A stretch of 39,699 nucleotides of DNA from an uncultured archaeon (GCA_965370715.1 CBDUVQ010000001.1:1-39699); one strand, 5' to 3'; positions 123-39,699 are shown, counted from the first letter of the stretch. Translations and numbers: made by a program. Notes: generated from the letters alone by a model not told the origin.

Positions 123-2129
123 ATGGTGAAATTTATGCTGGAAAAATATGTGGGTGGGGTAAAAAAGATATTTAGAATACCTAAGGAAGACGATAATACA
201 TGCGTCCTGATGGAAAGAGACGCATCCACGACACAGAGAATCCCCCGTTCTGAAGCAAAAGAACCTTTTTTTGCATCTGAAGACGAAAATCTCTTTGGAT
301 GCCCTGAAACCTCTATGCAATCCGCACCTAAAGCCAGTCATCTCACTAACGTTCGAAGCTTTTCGAACAAGTTCGAAAATGGTTTGTTTGGTTCTGTTTC
401 AAGCCAGCTCACTTCGCATCCGCGTCGTTCGAATCTTTCGAGTACATCTCAAAATACTCCAACCGGCAACCCCTCCATAAATGAAACTGTTGAAAACGTT
501 CATCTCCAAAACGGAGAGCCTACAAAGTGTTTCGAAGATGGAAAAGTTTTAACGATTTCAGATGATGTCAGGGAAGAAAGACAAAAAAGCCAGCTTGAAA
601 TATCAAACATGGAGCTACGAAATAAAATACTATTTTCTCAAAAAGATGAAAAAACAAAAAAGAATGTCAAAGGAGCAACTCAAACAATAGGTGATCTTGC
701 GGGCGAAGATACATATGAATCTATGCAACCAGATGAAAGGCCTTTGCCAAAACAAAGAAAAGGGAAAAACGATGAGTCTGTTATTCAGAACATTTTGATG
801 AGTATAGAGAAAATTGAAGGAAAACTCGAGGGAACCACTGAATCAAAAAACCAGTTGATGCAGAAAACGATGGATCTTTCTGAGAGAATTGGAGAAGTTC
901 GCTCAATGGTTCTTGAAAGAGAGCGCAAGATAAATGACATTGATCTCACAGTAACGCGGGTTTCTGATATTGTAGAAAATGTAGATCCAAAAAAGTTTCT
1001 GCGCAATATAGAAAAAATAAATTCAAAACTATCCGAATTTGACGTCGTTATGGAAAAGAACGACGGAACAATAAAAATTCTTAAATCAGAAATATCCCGC
1101 CTAAACGATAAAACGTCAAAAATCGGGGATTTCGAGGCACTTTCAAATATGCAGGCGCGCGTTTCAAAATCAGTTGATGAAGTTAATAACAAGAGGAAAG
1201 AAGTGTTTGTAATATCATCCAAAATAGAATCTATGTTTGGTGAATTGAGTGCCCGTTTCCCTGAATTAGATTCAATCAAAACAAATGTAGAGGAATATAC
1301 GAAGATTTTGCAGGATATGTTAAAAGATGTTGATGCGCTTAAAACACAAATGAGTGCTATCAAAACTACGCAAAACAGTATGAAAAAGAAGGATGTCTCA
1401 AAAGAACCAACAAAAAAGGATTTTGAATCTTTTAATGAGATGTTTTCTACGGATCTTAAAGCAACCAATAAAAGAATGTTGGCTATTTCGGCTGAAATTC
1501 AGCAAATTGTAAAGCATGTAAAGCGTCTTGAAACCACTAATAAAGACAACGCAGCTGTAGAGTTTGCAGCACTCAACAGGAGAATTGAAATGCTTGAATC
1601 AAGAGTGCAGAAAACAAATGAAATGGAAGACACAGACCGCAATATAAATCGTGTGCTTACAGAATACGAGAAATTAAACAACATATGGGAACGAGACACA
1701 GATGTTGCTATAAAAAATATCAACACAAGCATGGGCGTTATAACTAACAAACTAGGTTCTGTGAGTAGCGAACTGGGGCGATTTGAAGAAAAACAGGCAC
1801 AGGCAGTTTCTTTTTCAGATATGGTTGTGGGGAATCAGAACCCAAAGACAAGACATTTTCTAAGACAAGACATTGAAAAACCATCTGGAACTGATGACAT
1901 AGAAGCAGCCATACAGAATACGAAAAAAGCGATAATGTTTATCGATGAAGGCAGGCATTCAGAAGCAGGAAAACTATATAGTAAATCACTCGAAACGTAT
2001 TCATGCGCTATTACAAAAAACGATTTAGACCCTGCAATACATGTACAGCTAATAACATTGTACGGCGCACTAAAACGCATACATTCCAGGCTAAAAAATG
2101 AAAATAAGACCCTTAAGACGCGATCATAA
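123..2129 (+). CDS. Long coiled-coil protein of unknown function, with an S/T/P/N-rich N-terminus and a C-terminal MIT/TPR-like helical module
   Basis: 668-codon ORF, dominant in its region. The central ~400 aa are E/K/L/I/N-rich and heptad-like (e.g. EKIEGKLEGTTESKNQLMQKTMDLSERIGEVRSMVLERERKINDIDL). The C-terminal ~70 aa (IEAAIQNTKKAIMFIDEGRHSEAGKLYSKSLETY...LKRIHSRLK) resemble an MIT-type three-helix pattern. No family was recognised with certainty. Confidence 0.6.
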   Translation: MVKFMLEKYVGGVKKIFRIPKEDDNTCVLMERDASTTQRIPRSEAKEPFFASEDENLFGCPETSMQSAPKASHLTNVRSFSNKFENGLFGSVSSQLTSHPRRSNLSSTSQNTPTGNPSINETVENVHLQNGEPTKCFEDGKVLTISDDVREERQKSQLEISNMELRNKILFSQKDEKTKKNVKGATQTIGDLAGEDTYESMQPDERPLPKQRKGKNDESVIQNILMSIEKIEGKLEGTTESKNQLMQKTMDLSERIGEVRSMVLERERKINDIDLTVTRVSDIVENVDPKKFLRNIEKINSKLSEFDVVMEKNDGTIKILKSEISRLNDKTSKIGDFEALSNMQARVSKSVDEVNNKRKEVFVISSKIESMFGELSARFPELDSIKTNVEEYTKILQDMLKDVDALKTQMSAIKTTQNSMKKKDVSKEPTKKDFESFNEMFSTDLKATNKRMLAISAEIQQIVKHVKRLETTNKDNAAVEFAALNRRIEMLESRVQKTNEMEDTDRNINRVLTEYEKLNNIWERDTDVAIKNINTSMGVITNKLGSVSSELGRFEEKQAQAVSFSDMVVGNQNPKTRHFLRQDIEKPSGTDDIEAAIQNTKKAIMFIDEGRHSEAGKLYSKSLETYSCAITKNDLDPAIHVQLITLYGALKRIHSRLKNENKTLKTRS

Positions 2130-3751: not shown

Positions 3752-5455
3752 CTACTGCTCGCACTCAATAGTGATTTGAAGCTTGCCCGCAACAGTCTCG
3801 CTTGAGACCACGCGGCAGTTTTCATCAAACACAGTTTTATTTTTTACAGGCTCAACTACAGAATCTTCCTTAACTTCCTGATCGCCCCAACCAAACAGCT
3901 TGACCTGCTCGCTTTTTGCGTCAACCACAGCAACAGCCTTAAGCACCATTGACTCGCGCACTCCGGAATACACAGGCACCACATAGAAGTATCCGTCCTT
4001 TATTTTCTTGAACAAGGGTTGCAATGCATACCAGTCACTGTAAAGGCTTATTTCCCCGCGTACATCACCAATAGCTCTTTCAGGCCCGATAAGCCCGAGC
4101 GCACGTGTATCATAAATCACAGGCGTGCCATAGTCTGTTCCTGATGCCTCAATTTCCATGTACTGCGTTATTGCCTTCCTTGTATTTCCTTCCGGCTCAA
4201 GCTGGAAAAGACCGTATGTCCTGTCTGTGTCCTTGTCATACTGGAAATACATCTCGCGCGCAAGCTCGAAAACATTCTCGTGCTGGAACTGGTAATTCAA
4301 AAATCCTTTCCATGTAGCGTATTTTGCCCATTTCCAAACGCGCTCATAAGAATAATCCTCATCTATTAGAACCTGCCCGTCAAGCAGCCATGCCGGGGCA
4401 TTTCCCTGCCTAATGTCGCTTTCAGAATAAAAGATAACCTTTCCGCTGTTGTCAAGAGTTACAATACCGACCTGCTCTGTGTAGAACTTCACTATAAACT
4501 TGGTCGGATACCTCAATTTTACAGGAGCGAACCATACTGGCTCTCCATCGCAATCATGAGTGAATACAGTGTCGCCGTAGTTAAAGAAAGGATATTTCAG
4601 CCAGTATTTTGTCTTGACATCGCGTATCTTTCCTGTTATAATCTGGTATGCAAGAAGTATGAGCGCTCCCCGCTCTTCGGAAAACTCAATATCGCCCATT
4701 ATCTTTCTTCTGTCTGACGGGTTCTGGGCATTCACGATTATGTGTGCCGGAGAAGGAGCTCCGTTGTTTGCAAGGCGCGTGGGCTCATAAGCCATCACCC
4801 AGTAAAGCGTATTGTCTATAGAGTAAATGCCGTCCCAGTCACTTGAAAGTTTCCATCCTGTCTCTGTAACCATTGTCTTTGGCACCTGAAGCGCGTATTC
4901 CTGTGATACAAGCCTCATATCGCTTATGTCTTCCCAGATGATTTCAGAAAGCAATGCAGGCTCGACATCCTCAACAACTATGGTGCTTACATCGCGCATT
5001 TTGTACCAACCAACCTCTTGTGGCGGTGCAAATACTGCTGTCAGGAGGCTTAGAATAATAACAATCATAATTGTTCCGGCAAATAGGCTAGGGCGCGAGA
5101 ACTCAAAGCGCACAGCAGGTTCACCCTCTTCCATGCGCCTTACTTTTTTGGCAGTTTGCTTAAGGCCGATTATTTTTACTCCCTCAAGCAAAAGGCGCAG
5201 AAAAACCGCGAATACAAGAGCGCCTATGGGATTTGTGCTGACAAGTACAGCTCCTGCAATCCAGCTAAAAAGAACATTTGCAACAAGCCCTTTCTTTCCG
5301 AAGTTCCGCAATATTCCAAAAAACGCAACAGAGCCAACAAATAATGCCCAAAGAGTATAGAACCCTAAAAAACCAAGACTCATGAAAAGGTCAAGCCACA
5401 TACACTTTATTTGGCTGAAAACTATATATTGGTATTTCGGCAGTGTACGCAGCAA
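3752..5455 (-). CDS. Membrane protein with N-terminal TM helices and a large extracytoplasmic domain, possibly UPF0182/COG1615-like
   Basis: 3-4 hydrophobic helices sit in the first ~150 aa. The C-terminal signature (WYALQPLFKKIKDGYFYVVPVYSGVRESMVLKAVAVVDAKSEQVKLFGWG) is reminiscent of UPF0182, but this family call is tentative. The true start is probably Met19 at 5401 (MWLDLF...), which lies ~25 nt downstream of the TATA-like ACTATATATT at 5421-5430. Confidence 0.65.
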   Translation of the reverse strand: MLRTLPKYQYIVFSQIKCMWLDLFMSLGFLGFYTLWALFVGSVAFFGILRNFGKKGLVANVLFSWIAGAVLVSTNPIGALVFAVFLRLLLEGVKIIGLKQTAKKVRRMEEGEPAVRFEFSRPSLFAGTIMIVIILSLLTAVFAPPQEVGWYKMRDVSTIVVEDVEPALLSEIIWEDISDMRLVSQEYALQVPKTMVTETGWKLSSDWDGIYSIDNTLYWVMAYEPTRLANNGAPSPAHIIVNAQNPSDRRKIMGDIEFSEERGALILLAYQIITGKIRDVKTKYWLKYPFFNYGDTVFTHDCDGEPVWFAPVKLRYPTKFIVKFYTEQVGIVTLDNSGKVIFYSESDIRQGNAPAWLLDGQVLIDEDYSYERVWKWAKYATWKGFLNYQFQHENVFELAREMYFQYDKDTDRTYGLFQLEPEGNTRKAITQYMEIEASGTDYGTPVIYDTRALGLIGPERAIGDVRGEISLYSDWYALQPLFKKIKDGYFYVVPVYSGVRESMVLKAVAVVDAKSEQVKLFGWGDQEVKEDSVVEPVKNKTVFDENCRVVSSETVAGKLQITIECEQ

Positions 5456-14938: not shown

Positions 14939-17359
14939 ATGGACAAAACAAATGCTTTCATTTTGTGGTTTGACCAGCTCGGCATCGAGGATGTTCCGCT
15001 TGTCGGCGGAAAAAATGCATCTTTGGGTGAGATGTATAGAAACCTGTCTTCTCTCGGAGTAAAAATACCGAACGGTTTTGCCGTGACTTCAAAAGCATAC
15101 TGGCATTTTCTTGAAACAGCAGGAATAAAGGATAAAATACATGAAATACTTTCAGACCTTGACACGCGCAGCATAAAAAACCTTCGCGAGCACGGTGAAA
15201 AAGTGAGAAAAACAATATTGGCAGCAGAACTCCCTGATGACCTGAAGCAGGAAATTGTTGAGGCATATTCGCACCTTGAAAAGCAGTACAGCGAATTTGT
15301 TGATGTTGCAGTTCGCTCAAGCGCAACAGCAGAGGACCTTCCTGATGCAAGCTTTGCAGGGCAACAAGAAACATACCTCAATATAACAGGTCCTGAGTCA
15401 CTGGTTCTGGCATGTAAAAAATGCATTGCCTCGCTTTTCACAGACAGGGCGATATCTTATCGCGCAGACAAGAACTTTGACCATTTTTCTATTGCACTTT
15501 CAATCGGCGTTCAGAAAATGGTGCGCTCTGACCAGGCAACAAGCGGTGTGATGTTTTCAATTGATACAGAAAGCGGTTTTCAGGACGTTGTTGTAATCAA
15601 CGCAGCATATGGGCTTGGGGAAAATGTCGTGCAGGGTGCGGTAAACCCTGACGAGTATATGGTGTTTAAGCCGACACTTCTTAAGGGCAAAAGGCCTATT
15701 ATCTCAAAGTCTATTGGCTCAAAAGAGCAGAAGATGGTGTATACAACAGACGGGCGCCACCCGACAAAGAACGTGCCTGTGTCTGTTGCAGAACAAAAGT
15801 CTTTCGCGCTTTCTGATGATGAGATTCTCATGCTTTCAAAGTGGGCGTGCACAATCGAGGATCATTATTCCAAAAAGGCAGGGCACAAAAAGCCCATGGA
15901 TATGGAGTGGGCAAAAGACGGAGTAACAAATGAGATTTTCATTGTTCAGGCGCGGCCGGAAACAGTCCAGTCGCAAAAGGACAAAAATGTTATCAAAACA
16001 TATGTGCTAAAGCAAAAAGGAGACCTTCTTGTGGTAGGAACAAGTGTCGGCGATATGATTGGCAATGGACGCGCGCACGTCATAAAAAGCGTTCACAACA
16101 TTGATGAGTTCAAGAAAGGCGAGGTTCTTGTTACAGACATGACAGACCCTGACTGGGAGCCGATAATGAAGATAGCGTCTGCAATTGTCACAAACAGGGG
16201 CGGGCGCACATGCCACGCAGCAATAATATCGCGCGAGCTTGGAATCCCCTGCGTTGTCGGCACAACCACTTCAACTGAAAAAGTAAAGAACGGGGCAAAC
16301 GTAACAGTTTCGTGCGCAGAAGGAGAAGAAGGTTATGTTTACAAAGGAAAACTTCAATTTGAGATTCAGGAAATAAAGCTTGATGACATACCTCTGACAA
16401 AAACAAAAATAATGATGAATGTCGGAAACCCTGGACAGGCATTTGAGAACTCATTCATACCAAATGAGGGTGTCGGCCTTGCGCGCGAGGAGTTTGTGAT
16501 AAATTCCCATATAAAAATACACCCTCTTGCGCTCATACATTTCAGTAAGATAAAAAAGGATAAAAAAAACAAGGAATTGGTAAAAGAAATTGAAGAATTA
16601 ACACCCGGATACAAAAACAAGTCTGATTTTTTTGTTGACAAGCTTGCAGAAGGAATCGGTACGATTGGCGCTGCATTTTATCCTAAAGACGTCATAGTTC
16701 GATTATCAGATTTCAAATCCAATGAGTATTCAAACCTGATTGGAGGCACACTTTTTGAGCCGCATGAGGACAACCCCATGATTGGCTGGAGGGGTGCATC
16801 AAGATATTATTCTGATAAATACAGGGATGCGTTTGTTCTTGAGTGCAGGGCACTCAAAAAAGTAAGAAATGACTTTGGCCTCAATAATGTCAAAATCATG
16901 ATTCCGTTCTGCCGAACCGTTGATGAAGGAAAAGCTGTCCTGACAGAAATGAAAAAGAACGGCCTCAAAAAAGGAGAAAACGGGCTTGAGGTATATGTCA
17001 TGTGCGAAATTCCTTCAAACGTGATTCTTGCAGACAAGTTTTCTGAAATCTTTGACGGTTTTTCAATAGGCACAAATGACCTGACCCAATTGACACTGGG
17101 ACTTGACAGAGATTCTGAAATTGTCTCACACATCTATGATGAGCGAAACGAGGCAGTCAAGCGCCTGATTACAAGCGTAATAAAGACTGCAAAAGAAAAA
17201 AAGAGGAAAATCGGAATATGTGGGCAGGCGCCAAGCGACTTTCCTGATTTTGCCGAATTTCTTGTCGAATGCGGGATTGACTCAATTTCCCTGAACCCGG
17301 ACACTGTTGTTAAAACAAGGCTTAAAATTGCAGAAAAAGAGAAAAACCTGAAACTCTAA
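14939..17359 (+). CDS. ppsA: Phosphoenolpyruvate synthase (pyruvate, water dikinase)
   Basis: 806 aa with GGKNASLGEM, the phospho-His motif GGRTCHAAIISRELGIPCVVG, and a C-terminal PEP-utilising TIM domain (GFSIGTNDLTQL, CGQAP). Confidence 0.95.
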   Translation: MDKTNAFILWFDQLGIEDVPLVGGKNASLGEMYRNLSSLGVKIPNGFAVTSKAYWHFLETAGIKDKIHEILSDLDTRSIKNLREHGEKVRKTILAAELPDDLKQEIVEAYSHLEKQYSEFVDVAVRSSATAEDLPDASFAGQQETYLNITGPESLVLACKKCIASLFTDRAISYRADKNFDHFSIALSIGVQKMVRSDQATSGVMFSIDTESGFQDVVVINAAYGLGENVVQGAVNPDEYMVFKPTLLKGKRPIISKSIGSKEQKMVYTTDGRHPTKNVPVSVAEQKSFALSDDEILMLSKWACTIEDHYSKKAGHKKPMDMEWAKDGVTNEIFIVQARPETVQSQKDKNVIKTYVLKQKGDLLVVGTSVGDMIGNGRAHVIKSVHNIDEFKKGEVLVTDMTDPDWEPIMKIASAIVTNRGGRTCHAAIISRELGIPCVVGTTTSTEKVKNGANVTVSCAEGEEGYVYKGKLQFEIQEIKLDDIPLTKTKIMMNVGNPGQAFENSFIPNEGVGLAREEFVINSHIKIHPLALIHFSKIKKDKKNKELVKEIEELTPGYKNKSDFFVDKLAEGIGTIGAAFYPKDVIVRLSDFKSNEYSNLIGGTLFEPHEDNPMIGWRGASRYYSDKYRDAFVLECRALKKVRNDFGLNNVKIMIPFCRTVDEGKAVLTEMKKNGLKKGENGLEVYVMCEIPSNVILADKFSEIFDGFSIGTNDLTQLTLGLDRDSEIVSHIYDERNEAVKRLITSVIKTAKEKKRKIGICGQAPSDFPDFAEFLVECGIDSISLNPDTVVKTRLKIAEKEKNLKL

Positions 17360-17570: not shown

Positions 17571-17900
17571 ATGCAACCAGTAATGAAGCAGGCACAACAG
17601 AATATAATGAAAAGTATGATACCGCCCATTTTCGCGGATGAAGCAGTGATAATAACTCCTGTTCGGGCAATGAAAGACAAAAACGGTAAAATAACAAAAG
17701 AAGGCCATGTGGTTGTTGTTTTTGTTGACATGACAACCCAGCAACCCGTCTCAAAAATTGCAATGACTATGACAACTGCAAAAAACCTTGAGCGCGCACT
17801 CACAAATTCTATAGGGCGCCTTGAAAAGGATCTCAAATCAAAGAACATTCCTACAAAGCCAATTGAAAAAACAGAAACTTCAACAAAATACATTGGGTGA
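17571..17900 (+). CDS. Small hypothetical protein, possibly DUF3467-like
   Basis: GAGGTG SD lies 7 nt upstream of the ATG. The pattern FADEAVIITP...VVVVFVDM...VSKIAMTMTTAKNLERAL loosely resembles DUF3467; the family call is tentative. Confidence 0.55.
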   Translation: MQPVMKQAQQNIMKSMIPPIFADEAVIITPVRAMKDKNGKITKEGHVVVVFVDMTTQQPVSKIAMTMTTAKNLERALTNSIGRLEKDLKSKNIPTKPIEKTETSTKYIG

Positions 17901-17904
17901 TGTT

Positions 17905-18453
17905 ATGGCTGATGACTGCATATTCTGTAAAATCATTTCTGGGCAGATACCTGCATTAAAGATATACGAAGACGCGAACTTCATAGGCATTCTTGACATA
18001 AACCCGAGGCGCCGCGGTCACGCTGTTGTAATACCAAAACGCCACGCAAAGACACTTCTTGATCTTTCCGAAAAGCTAACAGGAGAGTATCTTGAAGTTG
18101 TGCAGGCCGTTGCAAGGCATATAGTCGGGGCTCTTGGGGCAAAAGGGTTCAATTTCGGCTCAAACAATGGCGAGGCAGCAGGGCAAATGGTTCCGCATGT
18201 GCATATACACATACTGCCGAGATTCTCCGGCGAAAAAATAACAGCAGGCTTCGAGGCAATATTTCAGCCGGACGAAGCACTCAAAAAAGAGCTTGAGCCA
18301 ACAAATAAAAAAATCGGCAGGATTGCACCATTAATCAGGCCTGAATTTTCTGAACAAAAAGAAGAGAAACCGACGGAAGAAGAAAATGACAAGAAATCTG
18401 GAGAACCTGCATGGGACTTTAATGATCGAGCAAACCAGCCAACGAATTTCTAG
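17905..18453 (+). CDS. HIT-family nucleotide hydrolase/transferase with an acidic/Lys-rich C-terminal tail
   Basis: CIFCKIISGQIP, and the histidine triad HVHIHILPR. Trimmed from track ORF 17821 to the ATG at 17905, which follows GGGTGAT. Confidence 0.85.
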   Translation: MADDCIFCKIISGQIPALKIYEDANFIGILDINPRRRGHAVVIPKRHAKTLLDLSEKLTGEYLEVVQAVARHIVGALGAKGFNFGSNNGEAAGQMVPHVHIHILPRFSGEKITAGFEAIFQPDEALKKELEPTNKKIGRIAPLIRPEFSEQKEEKPTEEENDKKSGEPAWDFNDRANQPTNF

Positions 18454-26631: not shown

Positions 26632-26718
26632 TGGTGCAGGGGAAGGGATTTGAACCCTCGAATGGACTAACCAACCGGGCCCTGAACCCGGCGCCGTTGA
26701 CCGCTTGGCTACCCCTGC
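26632..26718 (-). tRNA. tRNA-Leu (anticodon CAG), intron-less, with a long variable arm and an encoded CCA
   Basis: The reverse complement reads GCAGGGG UA GCCAAGCGGUCAACGGCG CCGGG UUCAGGG CCCGG UUGGUUAGUCCAUUC GAGGG UUCAAAU CCCUU CCCCUGC A CCA. Confidence 0.9.
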
Positions 26719-28333: not shown

Positions 28334-29113
28334 TTATTCCCTTATCAACTCAAGTAATGTAGACAAAATAACATCCGGCTTCTTTTCAGCAGGAAGCGCC
28401 TTGATTTCTGCAAGAGCCTCTCCATTCTCAGGCAGTATTGCGCACTTGAAGCCAGCGCGCCTTGAGAATGCAACATCTATCTCATAGTCGCCGCCAATGA
28501 AAATAACATCTTCAGGGAACATGAAAACGTCCTCAAAGAACCTCTGCTTTATCACATCTCCAGGCATTCCAAGAAGCTTCGGGATTTTGCCTGTAAGTAT
28601 CTCAACTGCCTTTATTATTGGTGCTTCTGCAGGAAACTTTTCATCTCCTGCTACAAAGTACCGCGATATTCCGGTGCAATAAAACGTTGCCCCGTGGTTT
28701 ATCAGGTCTGCCGCGGTCTTGAGCTTGCCATAAGTAAAATTGCGGTCAACAGAGATAATAACATGCTTTGCCTTGTCTGAAATTCCTATTCTTCGTTCCT
28801 CAAGCTCTTTTATGAGCCCGTGCTCACCAATAACGTATACTTCGCTTGCATCTGCTTCTTCAAGAAATCTTGCCGCAGAATAGCCTGCATTGATTATCTG
28901 CTCTTTTTTCACCCTGATGCCAAAATCTGCAAGCTTATCCTTTAGCTCGTTTCGTGAAAGAAGTGTGTTATTTGAAATAAAATATATTTTCTTGTGTTTT
29001 GATACAAGCTTGTCAATTACGTTTTTTGCATTTGCCCGAAGCTCACTCAAACGCCATACTGCGCTGTCAAGATCGAAAACAAATGTACTGAATGTCTGGT
29101 AGTTCAAAAGCAT
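28334..29113 (-). CDS. HAD-superfamily hydrolase, subfamily IIA-like (NagD/sugar-phosphatase type)
   Basis: Motif I FVFDLDSAVW, motif II ISNNT, and motif IV GGDYEIDV. Confidence 0.8.
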   Translation of the reverse strand: MLLNYQTFSTFVFDLDSAVWRLSELRANAKNVIDKLVSKHKKIYFISNNTLLSRNELKDKLADFGIRVKKEQIINAGYSAARFLEEADASEVYVIGEHGLIKELEERRIGISDKAKHVIISVDRNFTYGKLKTAADLINHGATFYCTGISRYFVAGDEKFPAEAPIIKAVEILTGKIPKLLGMPGDVIKQRFFEDVFMFPEDVIFIGGDYEIDVAFSRRAGFKCAILPENGEALAEIKALPAEKKPDVILSTLLELIRE

Positions 29114-31433: not shown

Positions 31434-31483
31434 AAATCAATTTCACATGCAACAAATATATAGCCGGAAAAATACAATATGCT

Positions 31484-32377
31484 TTGATGAAAATTGAGCA
31501 AAAAATCAGGGACATAAAAACCCTGAAAGTACAGGGCGCAGAAAACATTGCAAAGGCCGGTCTTCTCATCCTTCACGACTTTGCACAACAAAGCAAAAGT
31601 GATGATAAGAAGTTCGTGCGCGAGTTTCTCGCGCTCGCGAGAAAAGTTTCTCGCGCGAGGCCAACAGAGCCTGCGCTAAGGCATGAAATATTCTTTGTAA
31701 CAGAAAAAGTAAAGGTCTCCAAAACCCCGAAAAAAGATGCGATACTATTGTGCCGTTTCTACATCAAAAACATTGCATCCGTGAAAAAGAAAATCTCCCT
31801 GTATGGCTCAAGGAAACTAAGAAACAATGACGTCATAATGACGCACTGCCATTCTAACACTGTAATGGCAATATTTCGTGAGGCAAAAAAAAGCGGCAAG
31901 AAGTTTCGTGTCATTGTCACAGAGACGCGCCCGAAAATGCAAGGTGAGCGAACAGCAGCAGACCTTCTGCGAATGCGCGTGCCATTCATTTACGTGGTTG
32001 ACTCTGCAATGGCTCTCTTCATGAAACAGGCAACAAAAGTATTTGTAGGAGCGGACGCGCTGCTTTCAGACGGCTCTATTGTAAACAAGATAGGAACTGA
32101 GGCAACCGCTATTGTCGCAAAGGAATTCCGTGTGCCTGTGTTTTCCGCTGCCGGCACACACAAATTTGATGAAAAGACAATATTCGGTTTTGAAGAACCG
32201 ATAGAGGAACGCGACCCAAAAGAGATATGGAACAACAAAAAAATCAAAATATTGAATCCTGCATTTGACATAACTTCCGCAGATTATGTATCAGAAATTA
32301 TTACAGAGCGCGGTGTTTTTTCGCCGCATGCGCTTGCCGCACTGCTTTCAGGGGAGGCAATAAGCAATGTCCGTTGA
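31484..32377 (+). CDS. e2b2: eIF-2B alpha/beta/delta-family isomerase, most likely ribose-1,5-bisphosphate isomerase
   Basis: Family motifs THCHSNTV, VIVTETRPKMQGERTA, VGADALLSDGSIVNKIGT and NPAFDITSADYVSEIITERG. It shares an operon with form III RuBisCO. MtnA or a true eIF2B subunit cannot be fully excluded by eye. Confidence 0.75.
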   Translation: MMKIEQKIRDIKTLKVQGAENIAKAGLLILHDFAQQSKSDDKKFVREFLALARKVSRARPTEPALRHEIFFVTEKVKVSKTPKKDAILLCRFYIKNIASVKKKISLYGSRKLRNNDVIMTHCHSNTVMAIFREAKKSGKKFRVIVTETRPKMQGERTAADLLRMRVPFIYVVDSAMALFMKQATKVFVGADALLSDGSIVNKIGTEATAIVAKEFRVPVFSAAGTHKFDEKTIFGFEEPIEERDPKEIWNNKKIKILNPAFDITSADYVSEIITERGVFSPHALAALLSGEAISNVR

Positions 32378-32897
32378 GACTGAAGTCAAAATTAAGGTTG
32401 AAGACTTCAACCAAGTAAGAAAGAAGCTTTTAGAACTAGGTGCAAAGAAAGTATCAAAGGTGTTCGAGAAGAACACTTTGTTTGATGATGAGCAAAAAAG
32501 ACTAATAAAAAAAGACTGCCTGCTAAGACTGCGACATGACAAAAAAACAAAAATAACGTACAAAGGACCAAGACAAACGCACGACATGAAAAGCAGGGAA
32601 GAAATTGAGTTTGAAGTAGCAGATATTGCCAAAGCCGAAGTTCTTCTGAACCGGCTTGGGTTCAAAAAAACACTTGTTTATGAAAAAAAGCGCGAGACAT
32701 GGCGCTATAAAAACGTTGAGATTGTGCTTGATGAAATGCCATTTGGAAAATACATGGAAATTGAAGGTGGCAAAAAAGAAATTATCTCTTTCGCAAAGAA
32801 ACTCGGGTTTTCAAAAAAAGAGTTCATCACAAAAACATATTTTGAACTTGCAAAGGAAAAAGGAATAAAAAAAGATATTGTTTTCAAAAAAAGGTGA
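32367..32897 (+). CDS. CYTH-domain protein (triphosphate tunnel metalloenzyme; CyaB-like class IV adenylyl cyclase / triphosphatase family)
   Basis: N-terminal ExExK signature (VETEVKIKV), 176 aa, with the alternating charged beta-strand pattern typical of CYTH. It overlaps the isomerase gene by 11 nt. Its TGA stop is embedded in the AAGGTGA SD of rbcL. Confidence 0.75.
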   Translation: MSVETEVKIKVEDFNQVRKKLLELGAKKVSKVFEKNTLFDDEQKRLIKKDCLLRLRHDKKTKITYKGPRQTHDMKSREEIEFEVADIAKAEVLLNRLGFKKTLVYEKKRETWRYKNVEIVLDEMPFGKYMEIEGGKKEIISFAKKLGFSKKEFITKTYFELAKEKGIKKDIVFKKR

Positions 32898-32901
32898 TTT
32901 T

Positions 32902-34137
32902 ATGAAAGAATTAAGCTATATTGACCTGAAATACAAGCCGACAAAGAAGGATTTGATTGCAAAATACCGCCTTGAGCCAAGCGGGGTTTCATTTGAGGAG
33001 GCGTGCGAGCAGCTCGCAGCAGAGAGCAGCATAGGCACATGGACTGACATTTGTACCATGAGCCCGAAAATTGCAAAAAAGCTCAAGCCACATGTTTTTT
33101 CAATTAACAAAAAAAAGAATCTTGCAGAAATCGCATACCCTGAAGCGCTTTTTGAGCCGGGAAACATGCCCCAGATTTTGTCAAGCATCGCAGGAAACAT
33201 ATTTGGCATGAAAATTGTGAAGAACTTACGCCTTGTCGATGTTTCGTTTTCTGAAAAGCTCGGAAAATCTTTTCAGGGTCCTGCATTCGGAGTGTCCGGA
33301 ATCAGAAAACTCCTTAAAGTAAAAAAGCGCCCTCTTGTCGGCACAATAATAAAGCCAAAGGTTGGGCTTGATGAGAAAGAGCACGCAAAAGTAGCCTATG
33401 ACGCATGGGTTGGTGGGCTGGATATTGTGAAGGATGATGAAAACCTGACAGACATGTCCTTCAACCATTTTGAAAAAAGGGTTATTGAAACCCTCAAGCT
33501 TCGCAACAAGGTAGAAAAAGAGACAGGTGAGAAGAAAATATACATGCCGAATGTCACTGCAGAAACTGATGAGATGCTTCGCAGAGCCAGATTCGTGAAG
33601 AAACACGGCGGCGAATATGTGATGGTCGACATACTGACTCTTGGTTTTTCAGCCCTTCAGACGCTTCGAAAAGCAAACCTTGGTCTTGTACTTCATGCGC
33701 ACCGTGCAATGCACGCAGCGCTCACAAGAAGCGAGCGCCACGGGATATCGATGCTCGTCATTGCAAAGATTGCGCGCCTAATTGGCATGGACCAGCTTCA
33801 TATAGGAACCGCTTATGTCGGAAAGATGTCCGGCAGCGCAGACGAAGTCATTGATATAGAGCGCGCAATCAATGAAAAATCTTTTGGCATAAAGCCTGTT
33901 TTTGCAGTCGCATCAGGCGGCCTTCACCCGGGGCACGTTCCAAAGCTTGCAAAACGCATGGGAACAGACATCATCATGCAGTTTGGAGGGGGTGTGCACG
34001 GGCATCCTGACGGCACACGAGCAGGCGCTGCGGCAGTGAGGCAGGCAGCAGAATCAGTAATGAAAAAAGTTTCAATAAAACAATATGCTAAAACACATAA
34101 AGAGCTTGCAGGCGCGATTGAAAAATGGGGCTGCTGA
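32902..34137 (+). CDS. rbcL: Ribulose-1,5-bisphosphate carboxylase large subunit, archaeal form III type
   Basis: Catalytic positions are readable: ESSIGTWT, AGNIFGM, IIKPKVGL, GGLDIVKDDENL (carbamyl-Lys, Asp and Glu), LHAHRAMHAA, LHIGT..GKMSG, ASGGLHPG and QFGGGVHGHP. There is no small-subunit gene nearby. The start is set at the ATG at 32902, after AAGGTGA. Confidence 0.9.
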   Translation: MKELSYIDLKYKPTKKDLIAKYRLEPSGVSFEEACEQLAAESSIGTWTDICTMSPKIAKKLKPHVFSINKKKNLAEIAYPEALFEPGNMPQILSSIAGNIFGMKIVKNLRLVDVSFSEKLGKSFQGPAFGVSGIRKLLKVKKRPLVGTIIKPKVGLDEKEHAKVAYDAWVGGLDIVKDDENLTDMSFNHFEKRVIETLKLRNKVEKETGEKKIYMPNVTAETDEMLRRARFVKKHGGEYVMVDILTLGFSALQTLRKANLGLVLHAHRAMHAALTRSERHGISMLVIAKIARLIGMDQLHIGTAYVGKMSGSADEVIDIERAINEKSFGIKPVFAVASGGLHPGHVPKLAKRMGTDIIMQFGGGVHGHPDGTRAGAAAVRQAAESVMKKVSIKQYAKTHKELAGAIEKWGC

Positions 34138-34138
34138 G

Positions 34139-35551
34139 TTAGTCCACAACAATTTTTGAGGAAATGTTTTTTGTAATTTTTCCTTTTGAGTCTTTTGCAA
34201 GTATTTTTGCCTGCGGCAGGTGTATTTTTCCGACAACATCCAGTATTGGCTGGATTTTGTATGAAAATACGCGTTCCTCGCCATGCGGGATTTTCCCTAC
34301 TTTCCACACAATATCAGTTCCCGCAGTTCGTTTCTTTACCATTGACGGCTGGACGGTTCCGTATTTTTCAACAACAACAAACGCCGCAGGTACAAGATCC
34401 GAAATCTGAACCTCATCGAGCGTTTTTCTGCTGTTGTTCTTTATCTCAATATGAACTGTATGAACTGCATGCTCTGTCCCTTTGACAACCCTCTTTTTTA
34501 TTCCTGGCTTCTGCACCTCTCTTATGATGATAAACATGATTATTATTGCAAAAGCGACCACCAAAAGATGCATCCAATACATTACTTCATATCGAATAGT
34601 ACAGCTTTCATTCGGCGCAATCTCGCAGTGCCATACAAGCTTTTTCTGCCCGTCAATCCTTTCAACAAGCGGGGCTTTCTCAAAAATGTATGCGCTTCTA
34701 AGGAACGGGCTATCAATCATCACAGTCTCAGTTCCTTTCTCATTGCCGCTGTTTCTTATTGTGATCTCTGTCTCCCGGCCAAGAATCCCGCTCTCTACTG
34801 ACTCGTCTTTTTCAAAGATTGCCTTGGATTCTACGGAAAATGATGTTGTCGCAGTTCCGATTTTGTCCCCAAGCTCATTAATTACCTCAAGGTATGCGCC
34901 ATATATGCCGCTTGCAGAATACCGGTCAAAAAGAAACTCTTCAGTGAATATTCTTTCTTCATCAACTTCAAGAGCGGGAATGTCTATTGTGCGCTCTGCA
35001 CTGGTTGCACCAGACACCCTCATAAGCATGTGGCTTTTCTTTGACGTTGAAGTGCCGGTATTCTTTATTCCTATAAGAATCGTTATTTTTTCACCAATGT
35101 CGTACTTTGACTTTGACGGCTTGAATGTTGTTGTGTTAAGCCCGGACGTTGCAAGAACATACAAGACAACCTCGCTTTGGGTAAAAATATTCTGGTCTGT
35201 CTGGGACACTACATTGAAGTCAAATGTGTATGTGTCCTGGCTAGTGCCATAAGGCGGAGTTATGTAAAATACGACTTCTTCTGTCTTTCCACTTTCAATA
35301 TCAGCAGAAAACGTGTTAATTGTAACCCACGTAGTTTTTGCTCGCGCGCGTACGAATATGTTATATGTGTCTGCAACATCCTGTTTGTTTGTTATGCTAG
35401 CAGTGTATGTTGCTATTTTTCCGGCATAGACCGCGCTGCCGTCAGGAGTAATTGTTACAGAAAGAACATCAGTTTCTGCGCTTGCCATAGAAACCCCGGC
35501 TATCAAAAAGAAAATAACGGCAAATGTAAGACTTATTGACTGCCTGCTCAT
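34139..35551 (-). CDS. Secreted/membrane-anchored protein with CARDB/DUF11-like beta-sandwich repeats
   Basis: Signal peptide MSRQSISLTFAVIFFLIAGVSMASA. Repeated segments of the type TYxxxITNxG...ADTYNIFV. One internal TM helix (LLVVAFAIIIMFIIIREV). Trimmed from track end 35665 because the first 38 codons run through tRNA-Thr. The TATA-like TATTTATAA (35572-35580) lies 25 nt upstream of the ATG. Confidence 0.7.
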   Translation of the reverse strand: MSRQSISLTFAVIFFLIAGVSMASAETDVLSVTITPDGSAVYAGKIATYTASITNKQDVADTYNIFVRARAKTTWVTINTFSADIESGKTEEVVFYITPPYGTSQDTYTFDFNVVSQTDQNIFTQSEVVLYVLATSGLNTTTFKPSKSKYDIGEKITILIGIKNTGTSTSKKSHMLMRVSGATSAERTIDIPALEVDEERIFTEEFLFDRYSASGIYGAYLEVINELGDKIGTATTSFSVESKAIFEKDESVESGILGRETEITIRNSGNEKGTETVMIDSPFLRSAYIFEKAPLVERIDGQKKLVWHCEIAPNESCTIRYEVMYWMHLLVVAFAIIIMFIIIREVQKPGIKKRVVKGTEHAVHTVHIEIKNNSRKTLDEVQISDLVPAAFVVVEKYGTVQPSMVKKRTAGTDIVWKVGKIPHGEERVFSYKIQPILDVVGKIHLPQAKILAKDSKGKITKNISSKIVVD

Positions 35552-35602
35552 AGGCTTATAATGGATTCGTCTATTTATAATAGTTTCTTTCAGAAAATGT
35601 AA

Positions 35603-35715
35603 AGCCCCGGGCGAGATTCGAACTCGCGACCTTTGCCTTACCAAGGCAACGCTTTTGGCGGGCAATACTAAAATGATACAAATTCTTTACCCTCTACCGG
35701 CTGAGCCACCGGGGC
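35603..35715 (-). tRNA. tRNA-Thr (anticodon GGU) with a 40-nt intron in the D-stem/position 24-25 region and no encoded CCA
   Basis: The reverse complement reads GCCCCGG UG GCUC AGCCGGUA GAG [40 nt] C G UUGCC UUGGUAA GGCAA AGGUC GCGAG UUCGAAU CUCGC CCGGGGC U. The intron is about 35652-35691 in plus-strand coordinates (junction ambiguous by 1 nt). The exon sequence is a typical archaeal tRNA-Thr. Confidence 0.85.
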
Positions 35716-35971: not shown

Positions 35972-36568
35972 TTAAATGCTTTCCCTAAGCGCTGAAATGA
36001 ATTCACCAGACCAATCTACGTTACCTGGCAAGTGTTTTTCACGATTCTTGCCGCAAATCAATGCAATTGCTTCGCATGCTAGCGCATTCGGGGAGGTTCT
36101 TGTTGTATCTATTTCAAATACATTTTTGCATTTTTTCCGAGCCTCTAAAAGGCAGACACCAAGAGCTTCAGCCTCTATATTTTCCTTTACTTTTTCCTTG
36201 CTCCAGCCACGCAAAGAAAGCCGCCTTTTCAGTTCCACAGGATTCAGGCGAAGAACAATAATAATATCCGGGCTGCAAAAATGAGAAAGATGCCCATCGA
36301 GTATTGTGTTGCCTTTGATTGCATCTGCTTTTTTTCCAAGCTTTTTTTCGTCAACTATCCAGGAACCGCGTTTCACATCCTTTTCTGCAAAAAGCCCGTG
36401 CTTTTCTGCGAATTCATTTACATCTATAAGCAGGTGCCCGGTTTTCTTTGAAATGATTTTTGATAACGTACTTTTTCCTGTTCCTGGTGTGCCTGTGATT
36501 GCAACTCTTGACACTTTTTTTCTGAGGTCATCAAAGCAAGGATTGATAAAGTTTTTCGAAGAATTCAT
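35972..36568 (-). CDS. Fap7/AK6-type putative adenylate kinase (ribosome-biogenesis NTPase)
   Basis: P-loop ITGTPGTGKSTLSK followed by LIDVNEFAEKHGL, with DGHLSHF and VLRLNP..L..RL. Size and order match archaeal Fap7-like kinases, with a ~20-aa N-terminal extension. Confidence 0.8.
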   Translation of the reverse strand: MNSSKNFINPCFDDLRKKVSRVAITGTPGTGKSTLSKIISKKTGHLLIDVNEFAEKHGLFAEKDVKRGSWIVDEKKLGKKADAIKGNTILDGHLSHFCSPDIIIVLRLNPVELKRRLSLRGWSKEKVKENIEAEALGVCLLEARKKCKNVFEIDTTRTSPNALACEAIALICGKNREKHLPGNVDWSGEFISALRESI

Positions 36569-36638: not shown

Positions 36639-39600
36639 ATGAGAACACTCTCCTGTCTTTTCGTGGTTGCCGTTGTTTTTGCCCTGCTTTTGGTTTCTCC
36701 TGCATCGGCAGAAGAGTATGTAATCCTCACACCAAACAACAGTTCTTCTTATTATGATGAAGGCTTCAACCAGACAGCAACAGACATAAACACAACTCTT
36801 TCGCCAAATGCAACGATTGTGCGATTTGACTTAATTAATGATACTGTAAGAACATCTGTTGCATCAAAAAATCCAAAATACATTTATCTTGTAATGCAGG
36901 CAGCAAACCTTTCCCCTGATTTTCTGAATTCTGTTGACAACCTCACAAAATATCTTGACAGCGACCCGTATGTTGACGCAGGCTGGAGCATCATAACAGG
37001 GTATGACAACACCTCAGCAAAAAACCTTTTTGACAGGGACATGGATTCTGCGTGGAGCAACAACTATGTTTTTGTGCCGAACAATGCAAACGCTCAGGTT
37101 GCGGCTGGGACTCAAATCGCATCGCTTTTTAGCACGTCTGCTGTAACAGACGCAAGCGCGACAAATGAATCAATATACAATGCGCTTTCAACAATCAGCC
37201 CGGTAACAGATTTTGTTTACTTTTCGGCAGACCCTGCAGTGTATTCGTCCATATCTACAAAGCTATTTTCCGGAGAAGGTGCAGCATGCCCTGAAGCAAA
37301 TGAGGGTTCCGGAGCCCTTTGCATTAGTAACATGAATGTAAACAGGCTACTATTTTTTGCAGATGCTTCTGAAGCAGCAAGGGTAAACGGAACAAATTCT
37401 GATTCCACCTGGCTTTCAGATAATTCTGTTGCAAATTACAGCTTTTCACTTCCTATTGGTTTTTTATCATCAATAAATTCAGACGCTGCCGCATCATATA
37501 TCGGGCCTCACTCAACTCGATGGGTTTCATCAGAGAATATTGCAAAGTTCTTTACATCTTCGCTGAGCTATGGAAACGATATAGTATCCGCCCTCAGGTT
37601 TGCGAAAAACATGCTTTTGTTCAATGGAGAAAATGAATCGCTGTCTTCAAATTTTACTGAGTTTATTGCAGCAGAATACAACCTGTTCGGAAAAATGCAA
37701 AAGCCTTCAGCAGCATCAGCGCCTCAAAAGACATACAGCTTATCTTTTTCAAGAACCCATGAAAGTAATCCAGTAATATATTCTGAAAACATCACGAACA
37801 TAACATGGAATAATACAGTCACGGTTTCAGTGCCTTCAACAATAGCGGCACTGTATAGCCCGGTATCAGGCTGGGCTTCCTCAAACGCTTCAGTCTGGTA
37901 TAAAAACGTCTTAGAGCCATCGGGCGGTAAGGTGAATTTCTCATTTGTTTCTGCCATCTCGGGAGAAATTATTCCTGATTCTGCAACATTAAGTATACAA
38001 AACTACAATGGCACCTCAGCAGAGCAAAACATAACTGCTTTTAACATCTCTGTCAATGAGACCTACACACGGTATAATGCAAACGAATCTCTTCAAAACC
38101 ATCCTGCGCTGAGGTATGAATCAGATGTTGACAGAATCTATTTTGCACGTCTTTTCTCGCCAAATGCAACGCTTTCCGGCACCATTTCACAAGTTGATGT
38201 TATATACATCACAAGCGGTGTTACAACAAACAGAACTGCAATAACCGGAACAGAAAATGTCCTTGGGGAAACATTTGACATGATAAATCCTGCAGATGAA
38301 CCAATAACCTATGCATCCCTGCTTTATGAGCTTCCTTTTAATATCACGTCAAATTGTTCCGTTTCCGGAACAAACTGCTCAATAATTGATGTGGGCAATA
38401 CAAGATATGCCAATATAACATATTCATCAATAGCTTCCGGGATTACAACAAAGACCATATCGTACAACACAACACTTGATGTTAATACAACTAAAAACTA
38501 TTCTGTGTTTAATCTTGGCGAAACAATGACAATTATAATCAACATTACATCCACTGAAAACAGCACGGTTCTGGATTACGTTGCAAAGCTTGTTAATTCA
38601 ACTTCAGGAACGGTCTTATGGTCAAGCACAACAGAAGACATAATGCTTTCTTCATCAGGAGTTGTCAACACAACAATAGACAACTACGCCATTCCGCAAA
38701 CAACTAGTCCTGGAATATACACTCTGAAAACATATTATTTGTCCAATTCCACAAGCCATTACGCATCTTATGACTCAGTACCCATACAAATTACAAATGA
38801 GCTTAACCTGTCAAATACAACCTTCACAGCTACAGTCCTTAACAAGACATCTAAATACTATTTATTTGTGAATGACAGCATAACTGCCACGGGAAATGTC
38901 TATGACGTTCATGGAGACGCTATTGTTGGAGGTATAGTAAATATATCTCTTGTTGGAAGCATAGTAGAAAACTATACAGACGATTCAACCGGCTCTGCAG
39001 GCGAATATTCTGCACCCTTCAGCTGGACAGGGAGTTCAATAGGAAACAAGGTTCTTCGTGTAATTGCAACATATAACAATAACACAAAAACGCAAAATGA
39101 CACACTTTATATCACCCGTTACATAGGCGACACCATCTCCGTAACTTTTGACAAGACACTAAGCACAATAGAGAATAGAACAATATACAACAGATGGGAA
39201 ACACCAAAAATAACAGTAACTGTAAAAGATCCAAGCGGAGGGTCAAACTATGTTTACAAAGCGCTTGTTTCTGACAACGGAGGTCTTCCAGGCATTGGAG
39301 GAGACACAGAAACGGCATTAAACGGTAGCGCCACAATTACCTTTGACCCCTCAACAACAAGCACATATTTGATAAATGTTTCAGCACACTCTCCGCTCAA
39401 CACAACAAAGGTTGTGTACAACGCCACAAGATCGTTGAATATAATGTGGCTGGAAGCTGGCAGCGGATATTTTGTGGGAACTCAGACCCCGTCTTCTGCA
39501 AAGAAAGATTCTTCAGTAACCTTTACAGGCAATCTTACACTCAATGCCTATTCCGGAGCAAACACAACTCTCATTACAAACCCCACCTTGACATATAATT

Positions 39601-39699
39601 TGAATGTTAGTGGAAGCGATGTAACGGCTGCATCAAGTTGCACCGGCGGAACCATTTCAGGTGTGGACAGAACGTTTTCAATTACATGCGAGCCCCAAC
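36639..39699 (+). CDS. Large secreted surface protein (S-layer/adhesin-like), rich in N-glycosylation sequons; 3'-truncated by the window end
   Basis: The ATG at 36639 opens a frame that I checked codon by codon for ~400 codons (36639-37860). No competing plus-strand ORF is listed through 39699. Signal peptide MRTLSCLFVVAVVFALLLVSPASA|EE. Dozens of N-x-S/T sequons (e.g. NITNITWNNT, NISVNET, NSTSGT, NLSNTT). It is absent from the ORF track because it has no stop inside the window. Confidence 0.8.
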   Translation, partial: MRTLSCLFVVAVVFALLLVSPASAEEYVILTPNNSSSYYDEGFNQTATDINTTLSPNATIVRFDLINDTVRTSVASKNPKYIYLVMQAANLSPDFLNSVDNLTKYLDSDPYVDAGWSIITGYDNTSAKNLFDRDMDSAWSNNYVFVPNNANAQVAAGTQIASLFSTSAVTDASATNESIYNALSTISPVTDFVYFSADPAVYSSISTKLFSGEGAACPEANEGSGALCISNMNVNRLLFFADASEAARVNGTNSDSTWLSDNSVANYSFSLPIGFLSSINSDAAASYIGPHSTRWVSSENIAKFFTSSLSYGNDIVSALRFAKNMLLFNGENESLSSNFTEFIAAEYNLFGKMQKPSAASAPQKTYSLSFSRTHESNPVIYSENITNITWNNTVTVSVPSTIAALYSPVSGWASSNASVWYKNVLEPSGGKVNFSFVSAISGEIIPDSATLSIQNYNGTSAEQNITAFNISVNETYTRYNANESLQNHPALRYESDVDRIYFARLFSPNATLSGTISQVDVIYITSGVTTNRTAITGTENVLGETFDMINPADEPITYASLLYELPFNITSNCSVSGTNCSIIDVGNTRYANITYSSIASGITTKTISYNTTLDVNTTKNYSVFNLGETMTIIINITSTENSTVLDYVAKLVNSTSGTVLWSSTTEDIMLSSSGVVNTTIDNYAIPQTTSPGIYTLKTYYLSNSTSHYASYDSVPIQITNELNLSNTTFTATVLNKTSKYYLFVNDSITATGNVYDVHGDAIVGGIVNISLVGSIVENYTDDSTGSAGEYSAPFSWTGSSIGNKVLRVIATYNNNTKTQNDTLYITRYIGDTISVTFDKTLSTIENRTIYNRWETPKITVTVKDPSGGSNYVYKALVSDNGGLPGIGGDTETALNGSATITFDPSTTSTYLINVSAHSPLNTTKVVYNATRSLNIMWLEAGSGYFVGTQTPSSAKKDSSVTFTGNLTLNAYSGANTTLITNPTLTYNLNVSGSDVTAASSCTGGTISGVDRTFSITCEPQ

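Follow-up and report, generated by a model that had tools for sequence, protein, structure and literature searches.

The window examined here is a 39,699-nt stretch of DNA from an uncultured archaeon (GCA_965370715.1 CBDUVQ010000001.1:1-39699), and our interest is in a compact set of three genes at 31484-34137, in which a CYTH-family protein is encoded between an isomerase and a RuBisCO. The ORF map and the raw sequence place the three on the plus strand in the order e2b2, CYTH, and rbcL. The first, e2b2 (31487..32377, 296 aa, TGA at 32375-32377), is a gene of the IF-2B family of the ribose-1,5-bisphosphate (R15P) isomerase type; a TTG at 31484 offers an alternative start, with the gene callers' choice of ATG at 31487 being the more likely. 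The second (32367..32897, 176 aa, from ATG 32367 to TGA 32895-32897) encodes the CYTH protein, a triphosphate tunnel metalloenzyme (TTM), and the third, rbcL (32902..34137, 411 aa), encodes the large subunit of a form III-b RuBisCO.

The junctions between these genes are close. The reading frames of e2b2 and CYTH overlap by 11 nt, and a Shine-Dalgarno-like GGGGAGG (32351..32357, plus strand) lies within the 3' end of e2b2, 9 nt ahead of the CYTH ATG; its counterpart is AAGGAGG or GGAGG in two related contigs, L002 and L099. At the second junction, the Shine-Dalgarno-like AAGGTGA for rbcL (32891..32897, plus strand) provides the CYTH stop codon TGA with its last three bases, and four T residues separate that stop from the rbcL ATG at 32902. 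This element is identical in L002 and reads GGGTGA in a further relative, L001. An earlier, sequence-only reading of this DNA had described the same layout, with the 11-nt overlap, the TGA inside AAGGTGA, and the 4-nt gap to the rbcL ATG, and it is exact on every point.

Signals around the genes are consistent with one transcription unit. Only one TATA-like match occurs on the plus strand between 31400 and 34330, the ATATATA at 31456..31462, which lies ~25-31 nt 5' of the e2b2 start and, as the putative operon promoter, would yield a leaderless or short-leader mRNA. Just 3' of the rbcL stop, five runs of T5-T6 (34153..34229, plus strand) sit in the convergent gap with a minus-strand DUF11-type gene and resemble an archaeal oligo-T terminator region; no comparable cluster appears inside e2b2-CYTH-rbcL in a listing of T runs. 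Because the only TATA-like box stands before e2b2 and the T-run cluster comes only after rbcL, a single transcript would be the natural reading of the layout, and the geometry alone suggests both cotranscription and translational coupling of the trio. The operon-like unit that had been proposed is thus recovered as three intact, tightly packed genes with a lone TATA-like box upstream and T runs only past rbcL. A scan of the region for bacterial-type promoters and terminators was uninformative, as the host is an archaeon.

The three genes belong to an Aenigmarchaeota (DPANN) archaeon. The outer two would together carry out the last two steps of the AMP, or pentose-bisphosphate, pathway, converting R15P to ribulose-1,5-bisphosphate and this to two molecules of 3-phosphoglycerate. 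The e2b2 product matches PF01008 (IF-2B) with an E value of 3e-70. Its best NCBIfam match is TIGR00511 (R15P isomerase), at 237.6 bits under an equivalog cut-off of 314.1, and it passes the subfamily model TIGR00524 (198 bits versus a cut-off of 185.9). The best matches in the PDB are the R15P isomerases of P. horikoshii and Thermococcus kodakarensis (5yfj and 3a11, E about 1e-55), compared with E values of 3e-32 for aIF-2B (1vb5) and 3e-30 for MtnA (1t9k). The THCHS and GADA motifs align with those of R15P isomerases, as C121 in THC121HS and D190 in GAD190A, and we take this Cys and this Asp to be catalytic, as in the T. kodakarensis enzyme TK0185. By these comparisons, the protein appears nearer to the characterized R15P isomerases than to aIF-2B or MtnA.

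The rbcL product matches PF02788 and PF00016, scores 566.3 bits with TIGR03326 (type III RuBisCO, cut-off 497.45), and aligns over its full length with the P. horikoshii enzyme (PDB 2cwx, E 2e-126). Its active-site motifs, ESSIGTWT, GNIFG, KPKVG, DIVKDDE, HAHRAMH, LHIGT, GKMSG, SGGLH, and GGGVHG, are complete and align with that structure. With a score above the type III cut-off and every motif in register, the earlier claim of a form III RuBisCO with all catalytic residues intact holds; a near homologue carries the name Form III-b.

The gene in the middle had been described as encoding a 176-aa CYTH protein with an ExExK motif, and this too proved correct. PF01928 matches residues 4-158 with 71.1 bits (gathering cut-off 23.2, E 1.4e-19), and the motif, E4-T-E6-V-K8, does not vary among 29 aligned relatives. 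The nearest relative of known structure is SaTTM from Sulfolobus acidocaldarius (Saci_0718, PDB 7ns8-7nsf; PMC8233210), the best match in both sequence and fold: it is found with E 5e-17 from the single sequence and, as 7ns8, with E 2e-35 by a profile of the 29 sequences. An AlphaFold2 model (pLDDT 94.8, pTM 0.87) predicts the eight-stranded beta-barrel tunnel fold, and its top Foldseek matches are closed-tunnel states of SaTTM, with a TM score of 0.85. Like SaTTM, the protein is a single domain of ~180 aa in which ExExK, RxR, K, KxR, and ExE are all present; the two share only ~30% identity, and the window protein differs in being encoded inside an e2b2-rbcL operon. Although CYTH/TTM proteins occur in all domains of life, little is known of what they do physiologically (Vogt et al. 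2021, PMC8233210).

Conservation of the active site makes the comparison with SaTTM more specific. Ten residues, E4, E6, K8, R54, R56, K66, K107, R109, E131, and E133, are invariant in the protein and its 29 aligned relatives. In SaTTM, inorganic triphosphate (PPPi) and two metals are bound by E5, E7, R56, R58, K69, K110, R112, E135, and E137 (PMC8233210), and R54, R56, K66, K107, R109, E131, and E133 correspond to R56, R58, K69, K110, R112, E135, and E137 of this set. Every PPPi- or metal-binding residue of SaTTM thus has an invariant counterpart, and none is altered. The middle gene would accordingly supply a SaTTM-type, Mg2+-dependent two-metal hydrolase that takes the terminal phosphate off inorganic tri- or tetraphosphate and, more weakly, off nucleoside triphosphates (NTPs). 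According to Vogt et al. (2021, PMC8233210), SaTTM itself forms no cyclic nucleotide and is ~19-fold faster on PPPi than on NTPs.

A different activity is suggested by database names. Relatives of the protein are called class IV adenylate cyclase in NCBI records, the TIGR00318 'cyaB' model is matched with 86.2 bits (cut-off 57.95), and the Yersinia pestis CyaB (2fjt and 3n0y), the source of that name, shares the fold and superfamily, with TM scores of 0.80-0.83. If the name were right, a cyclase would tie cAMP to the pathway, and nucleotide-signal control was one role that the sequence-only reading had put forward; the 0.83 TM score to YpCyaB, the model score, and the names all point that way. 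However, Vogt et al. (2021, PMC8233210) give three motifs that tell class IV cyclases from triphosphatases, the cyclase signatures being an HF motif (HFxxxxExExK), a small residue where xRxR would have its first Arg, and ExA on beta8, and all three are missing here. There is no HF motif, as M-S-V alone precede E4, and none occurs in the relatives within the clade; the xRxR site reads L-L-R54-L-R56, with both arginines kept; and the beta8 site is E131-I-E133, in which the second Glu, the ligand of metal 2, is retained. The protein thus departs from CyaB in lacking the HF motif and in keeping the Arg and the second Glu that are replaced in cyclases.

Since the triphosphatase state is found at all three motifs and the SaTTM binding set is unaltered, the name class IV adenylate cyclase is very probably wrong for this protein group, and we predict a SaTTM-type triphosphatase rather than an adenylate cyclase. 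The closest characterized relative makes no cyclic nucleotide, and Vogt et al. showed cyclase annotation of archaeal CYTH proteins to be unreliable. A cAMP or signaling role is therefore very improbable, and the claim of nucleotide-signal control falls with it. Whatever its part in the pathway, the locus corrects the database name for this group. Thiamine triphosphatase was rejected as another candidate activity: there is no aromatic residue in W/YxRxR, the site for thiazolium stacking, where the protein has L52 of L-L-R-L-R.

To ask how widely the arrangement is kept, we compared contigs recovered by CYTH-centered searches. Close relatives of the protein (56-100% identity) form a small group only, most of them labeled Aenigmarchaeota, and three sublineages of a single Aenigmarchaeota clade have e2b2-CYTH-rbcL, with CYTH proteins that are 56-81% identical. 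Lineage A, comprising the window, L001, and L002 (CYTH ~80% identity), shares both the gene order and the junction design. In lineage B (L009-L013, 61-63%), the order is FEN1-e2b2-CYTH-rbcL, with gaps of ~14-23 nt between e2b2 and CYTH and an 8-nt overlap of CYTH and rbcL. Lineage C (L099, 57%) has a 4-nt ATGA overlap of e2b2 and CYTH, and the rbcL ATG directly follows the CYTH stop. Trio junctions are thus tight in all lineages, although their geometry varies from one to the next. The RuBisCOs of lineages A, B, and C have identities of 66-75%, tied with loci outside the trio such as L105. More distant CYTH relatives (at most 46% identity) lie in bacterial contexts that contain neither e2b2 nor rbcL, and the nearest ones outside the clade come from bacterial metagenome-assembled genomes (MAGs), at 35-46% identity.

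A fourth lineage, D, consists of L003 (CYTH 56%), in which e2b2-CYTH occurs without rbcL and is followed by a 262-aa gene and SecF/SecD. The genes that follow CYTH here are those that follow rbcL in lineage B (L009 and L012), and the e2b2 of lineage D groups with that of lineage B (72%). Because of this grouping, rbcL is best read as secondarily lost from lineage D. The pair occupies 21-1239 of the contig (MAG 'archaeon GLR112', WSZW01000174.1), the 262-aa protein that comes next is of low complexity, and the isomerase is left without a visible consumer of its product.

The arrangement is no chance feature of one genome, since it recurs in related contigs, and CYTH is under purifying selection, as are its neighbors. 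From pairs with unsaturated synonymous sites only, dN/dS is 0.12-0.15 for CYTH, 0.05-0.09 for rbcL, and 0.09-0.16 for e2b2. The sequence-only reading had named, as findings that would count against it, a CYTH insertion unique to this genome and relaxed selection on it; presence in three sublineages and the low dN/dS of CYTH dispose of both. The trio is also more stable than the background gene order, because of ~12 flanking genes per side, lineages A and B have only FEN1 and the trio in common.

Identity of e2b2 between lineage A and lineages B and D is just 40-42%, although FEN1 is 61-64% and CYTH 61-62% identical, and the lineage A e2b2 is nearer to that of the outgroup contigs L106 and L107 (50-51%) than to that of B and D. 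This comparison, of the window gene (31487-32377) with those of L009 (3168-4025), L012, and L003, points to an in situ replacement or a strong acceleration of e2b2 in lineages B and D. Taxonomic labels also disagree: L001 (JAIVYS010000019.1) is labeled Bathyarchaeota and L002 (JAFCBV010000025.1) Nanohalarchaeota. Both encode proteins 79-95% identical to those of the window, in syntenic order; the other relatives of the window are labeled Aenigmarchaeota, and labels or binning are probably wrong.

Composition might be thought to mark CYTH as a recent arrival, as its GC content of 35% is the lowest in the window (mean 42%, flanks 44-46%). However, GC and third-position GC (GC3) are each 4-11 points under those of the flanking genes in every lineage (window, L001, L002, L003, L009, L012, and L099), the CYTH GC follows each genome's own, and the protein is 20.5% lysine. 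Because of this lysine content, the low GC is explained by composition and not by recent horizontal transfer.

In samples from beyond this clade, the linkage is missing: the 84 other form III RuBisCO loci all lack CYTH. In the RuBisCO-centered sample of 80 metagenomic form III-b loci (56-67% RuBisCO identity to the query) and the Woesearchaeota locus L094, no CYTH was found by hmmsearch at E<=10; 66 of these 81 loci have at least 600 bp 5' of rbcL, room for a CYTH gene, and the profile finds SaTTM, class IV cyclases, and thiamine triphosphatases in the PDB, so its sensitivity is adequate. The Pfam gene tables of L104 and L105 (68-70% RuBisCO identity) list neither CYTH nor e2b2. A mobile CYTH-rbcL cassette that moves with form III-b RuBisCO is rejected by the same count.

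Other genes can stand between e2b2 and rbcL. Elsewhere among DPANN archaea, the spacer holds one or two small hydrophobic, membrane-like ORFs of ~90-145 aa, conserved among these loci (L042 4690-5004 and L050 3216-3976; also L058, L059, L060, L067, and L071). Being hydrophobic and membrane-like and without a profile match, these are not a hidden, divergent CYTH. The spacers of L058 and L059 hold a further ORF, of ~280 aa.

The outgroups show what the locus may have looked like beforehand. In e2b2-centered sampling, three outgroup Aenigmarchaeota contigs (L106, L107, and L108) have the frame FEN1-PIMT(-)-e2b2 without CYTH. The slot that follows is e2b2-AMPpase-apgM in L106, where AMPpase denotes AMP phosphorylase, DUF371-e2b2-rbcL-TrkA-TrkH-AMPpase in L107, and e2b2-rbcL-AMPpase in L108 (5332-10733, Aenigmatarchaeota GCA_043801595.1). 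Lineages A and B share 61-64% identity in FEN1, as against 47-51% between either and the three outgroups, and because of this difference the CYTH-bearing lineages form one clade. A single insertion of CYTH between e2b2 and rbcL is the simplest history. The gene would have entered a FEN1-(PIMT)-e2b2-rbcL(-AMPpase) block on one occasion, in the ancestor shared by the members of one Aenigmarchaeota subclade; purifying selection would then have kept it, tightly joined to its neighbors and hence on the same mRNA. For the pathway role that had been proposed for CYTH, this leaves no comparative support: 0 of 84 other loci carry it, sister e2b2-rbcL(-AMPpase) loci do without it, and it has one origin.

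Two details of these outgroups deserve mention. With just 37-41% identity to the form III-b enzymes that the other Aenigmarchaeota loci encode, the RuBisCO of L107 (4986-6206) is a different form in the same slot, which fits the lateral RuBisCO exchange reported by Jaffe et al. A DUF371 (PF04027) gene lies directly 5' of e2b2 and co-directional with it in L106 (5365-5781) and L107 (3614-4042), so that here too a small protein, in this case one of unassigned function, is joined to the operon.

Apart from CYTH, the locus resembles what has been published. The isomerase and RuBisCO are the ordinary DPANN form III-b set of the AMP pathway (Jaffe et al. 2019; Li et al. 2021 for Aenigmarchaeota). 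Published e2b2-RuBisCO clusters (2019, PMC6389311; Wrighton et al. 2016, PMC5113843), like L108 and L017, have an adjacent, co-directional isomerase and form III RuBisCO, as here, and the Aenigmarchaeota e2b2-rbcL loci share the slot FEN1-PIMT-e2b2-rbcL with the window operon. Unlike the published clusters, the window has CYTH between e2b2 and rbcL and no AMPpase after rbcL. Published descriptions are of consecutive genes or of e2b2-RuBisCO fusions, without CYTH (PMC6389311; PMC5113843), and neither Jaffe et al. (2019) nor Li et al. (2021) mentions a CYTH or adenylate cyclase neighbor. In the literature searched, no e2b2-rbcL operon setting is reported for SaTTM or any other CYTH protein. Full-text literature searches that included the TTM literature likewise found no description of a CYTH-RuBisCO or CYTH-e2b2 linkage, in agreement with the sequence-only reading, which knew of none. 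We regard the operon as a variant, hitherto undescribed, of a known gene cluster and the protein as a new addition to the SaTTM-like group.

The window's isomerase and RuBisCO are also homologous to those of the pathway in T. kodakarensis (PDB 3a11 and 1geh families). That AMP, or pentose bisphosphate, pathway reportedly consists of the AMP phosphorylase TK0353, the R15P isomerase TK0185, and the RuBisCO TK2290 (Sato 2007; Aono 2015). Its genes are presumably dispersed, unlike those of the window operon, and to our knowledge no CYTH protein takes part.

The reading that we hold to be somewhat more probable than its negation is that an existing operon received a triphosphatase gene in a single insertion and that this gene is coexpressed with it, serving generic housekeeping rather than a pathway step. 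The enzyme would hydrolyze PPPi, short polyphosphate, or the terminal phosphate of NTPs and merely share the expression of the operon. We arrive at this because the linkage arose once, because every other lineage runs the pathway without CYTH, and because the active site is canonical. Several observations weigh against it. CYTH has stayed between e2b2 and rbcL over a deep divergence (FEN1 ~62%) while nearly all the other neighbors changed, the junctions of the trio have stayed tight, and the e2b2-CYTH pair persists in L003, where rbcL is lost; such position-keeping exceeds what is expected of a neutral passenger. The gain of CYTH also goes together with a lack of AMPpase in the operon, which fits a functional swap, and the substrate range of a TTM is unreadable from sequence. 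It is the kept position, the tight junctions, the L003 pair, and the AMPpase coincidence that keep two other readings, of CYTH as a feeder of the pathway and as its protector, alive.

The first of these turns on AMPpase. The enzyme of the deoA type, defined by PF02885, PF00591, and PF07831, had been reported missing from the window, and we recovered none there either, whether with Pfam scans of every ORF of 130 aa or more or with tblastn of four AMPpases across the 39.7 kb. The other CYTH-bearing loci analyzed have none either. AMPpase follows rbcL in L108, as it does in 11 of 81 other loci, and in L107 it lies two genes further on. In place of the AMPpase that the operon of this clade would have lost, CYTH might make R15P or another substrate of the isomerase by taking the terminal phosphate off a more highly phosphorylated ribose compound, the most obvious candidate being phosphoribosyl pyrophosphate (PRPP), which would give R15P and phosphate. 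The conserved, tight position of the gene, the purifying selection on it, and the retention of e2b2-CYTH as a pair in L003 would suit such a feeder enzyme. So would chemistry: conversion of PRPP to R15P has been proposed for archaea as an abiotic reaction at high temperature (as summarized by Wrighton et al. 2016, PMC5113843), so that mesophiles would need an enzyme.

Several points count against it. The enzyme has the active site of a canonical linear-triphosphate hydrolase, with the known substrate-binding residues unaltered. We know of no TTM that acts on PRPP. L003 retains CYTH without rbcL, and the linkage has one evolutionary origin only. Nor is the missing neighbor informative, because about two-thirds of well-flanked form III-b loci also lack an adjacent AMPpase (among 31 loci flanked by 4.5 kb or more on each side, 11 have e2b2 and 10 have AMPpase); the enzyme may be encoded elsewhere in the CYTH-bearing genomes, and the full AMP pathway may thus still exist. 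We therefore regard a feeder role as unlikely. The stronger form of the idea, in which CYTH was recruited as a new entry to the pentose-bisphosphate pathway, forming R15P from PRPP or another pyro- or triphosphorylated ribose and replacing the AMPpase of the ancestral e2b2-rbcL-deoA operon, seems to us more doubtful still.

Alternatively, CYTH may be an accessory that protects or regulates the pathway. It could remove PPPi, short polyphosphate, or NTPs that compete at the isomerase or RuBisCO sites, or it could shift the adenylate/phosphate balance that controls the isomerase; coexpression would then tune pathway flux, although the enzyme itself would be no pathway step. A triphosphatase-type active site and a conserved operon with tight junctions agree with this, and SaTTM, which is extremely fast on PPPi and inhibited by pyrophosphate (PPi) (PMC8233210), has properties suited to scavenging. 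However, the idea is purely inferential, inhibition of these enzymes by PPPi or polyphosphate being hypothetical, and in all other lineages the same pathway operates with no CYTH linked to it. We give it slightly less credence than the feeder role in its general form, though more than recruitment as a new entry step.

These distinctions matter because clues to CYTH function are few, a conserved operon partner being one of them, and the trio offers a concrete and cheap experimental handle on an archaeal member of the family. The source of R15P in many RuBisCO-bearing DPANN archaea and candidate phyla radiation (CPR) organisms is unsettled. If a tunnel enzyme feeds or protects the isomerase-RuBisCO pair, the pathway gains a step, and if CYTH provides the entry step, it would be the first archaeal CYTH protein with a physiological substrate and a pathway role. 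If it is instead a passenger, the locus would be a clean example of compact DPANN genomes locking unrelated genes into one transcription unit over the long term and a warning against inferring function from adjacency of single origin.

Elsewhere in the window, three large ORFs, at 123-2129 (plus strand, 668 aa), 3752-5455 (minus strand, 567 aa), and 36639-39699 (plus strand, >1020 aa), have no Pfam match at E<=1e-4. The last runs off the end of the window; its full protein is 1404 aa, with a weak NPCBM_assoc match only. A weak Rfam tRNA match at 35603-35663 (minus strand, 31 bits versus a gathering threshold of 29) falls within the upstream extension of the ORF at 34139-35665 and is not found by ARAGORN, which finds only a tRNA-Leu(CAG) at 26632-26718. 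Three adenylate-related genes are present, none of which adjoins the operon: an adenylate-kinase-like AAA_18/PRK03839 'putative kinase' (35972-36568, minus strand), kept in L002; a PEP synthase/PPDK-family enzyme (14939-17359, plus strand); and a HIT-family nucleotide hydrolase (17821-18453, plus strand). A HAD-IIA hydrolase (28334-29113, minus strand) is encoded 2.4 kb upstream of the RuBisCO operon, and L001 has it too. Its best NCBIfam match is the TK1734 family of 2-phosphoglycolate phosphatases, at 107 bits far under the cut-off of 475, and it could handle the product of the oxygenase side reaction of RuBisCO.

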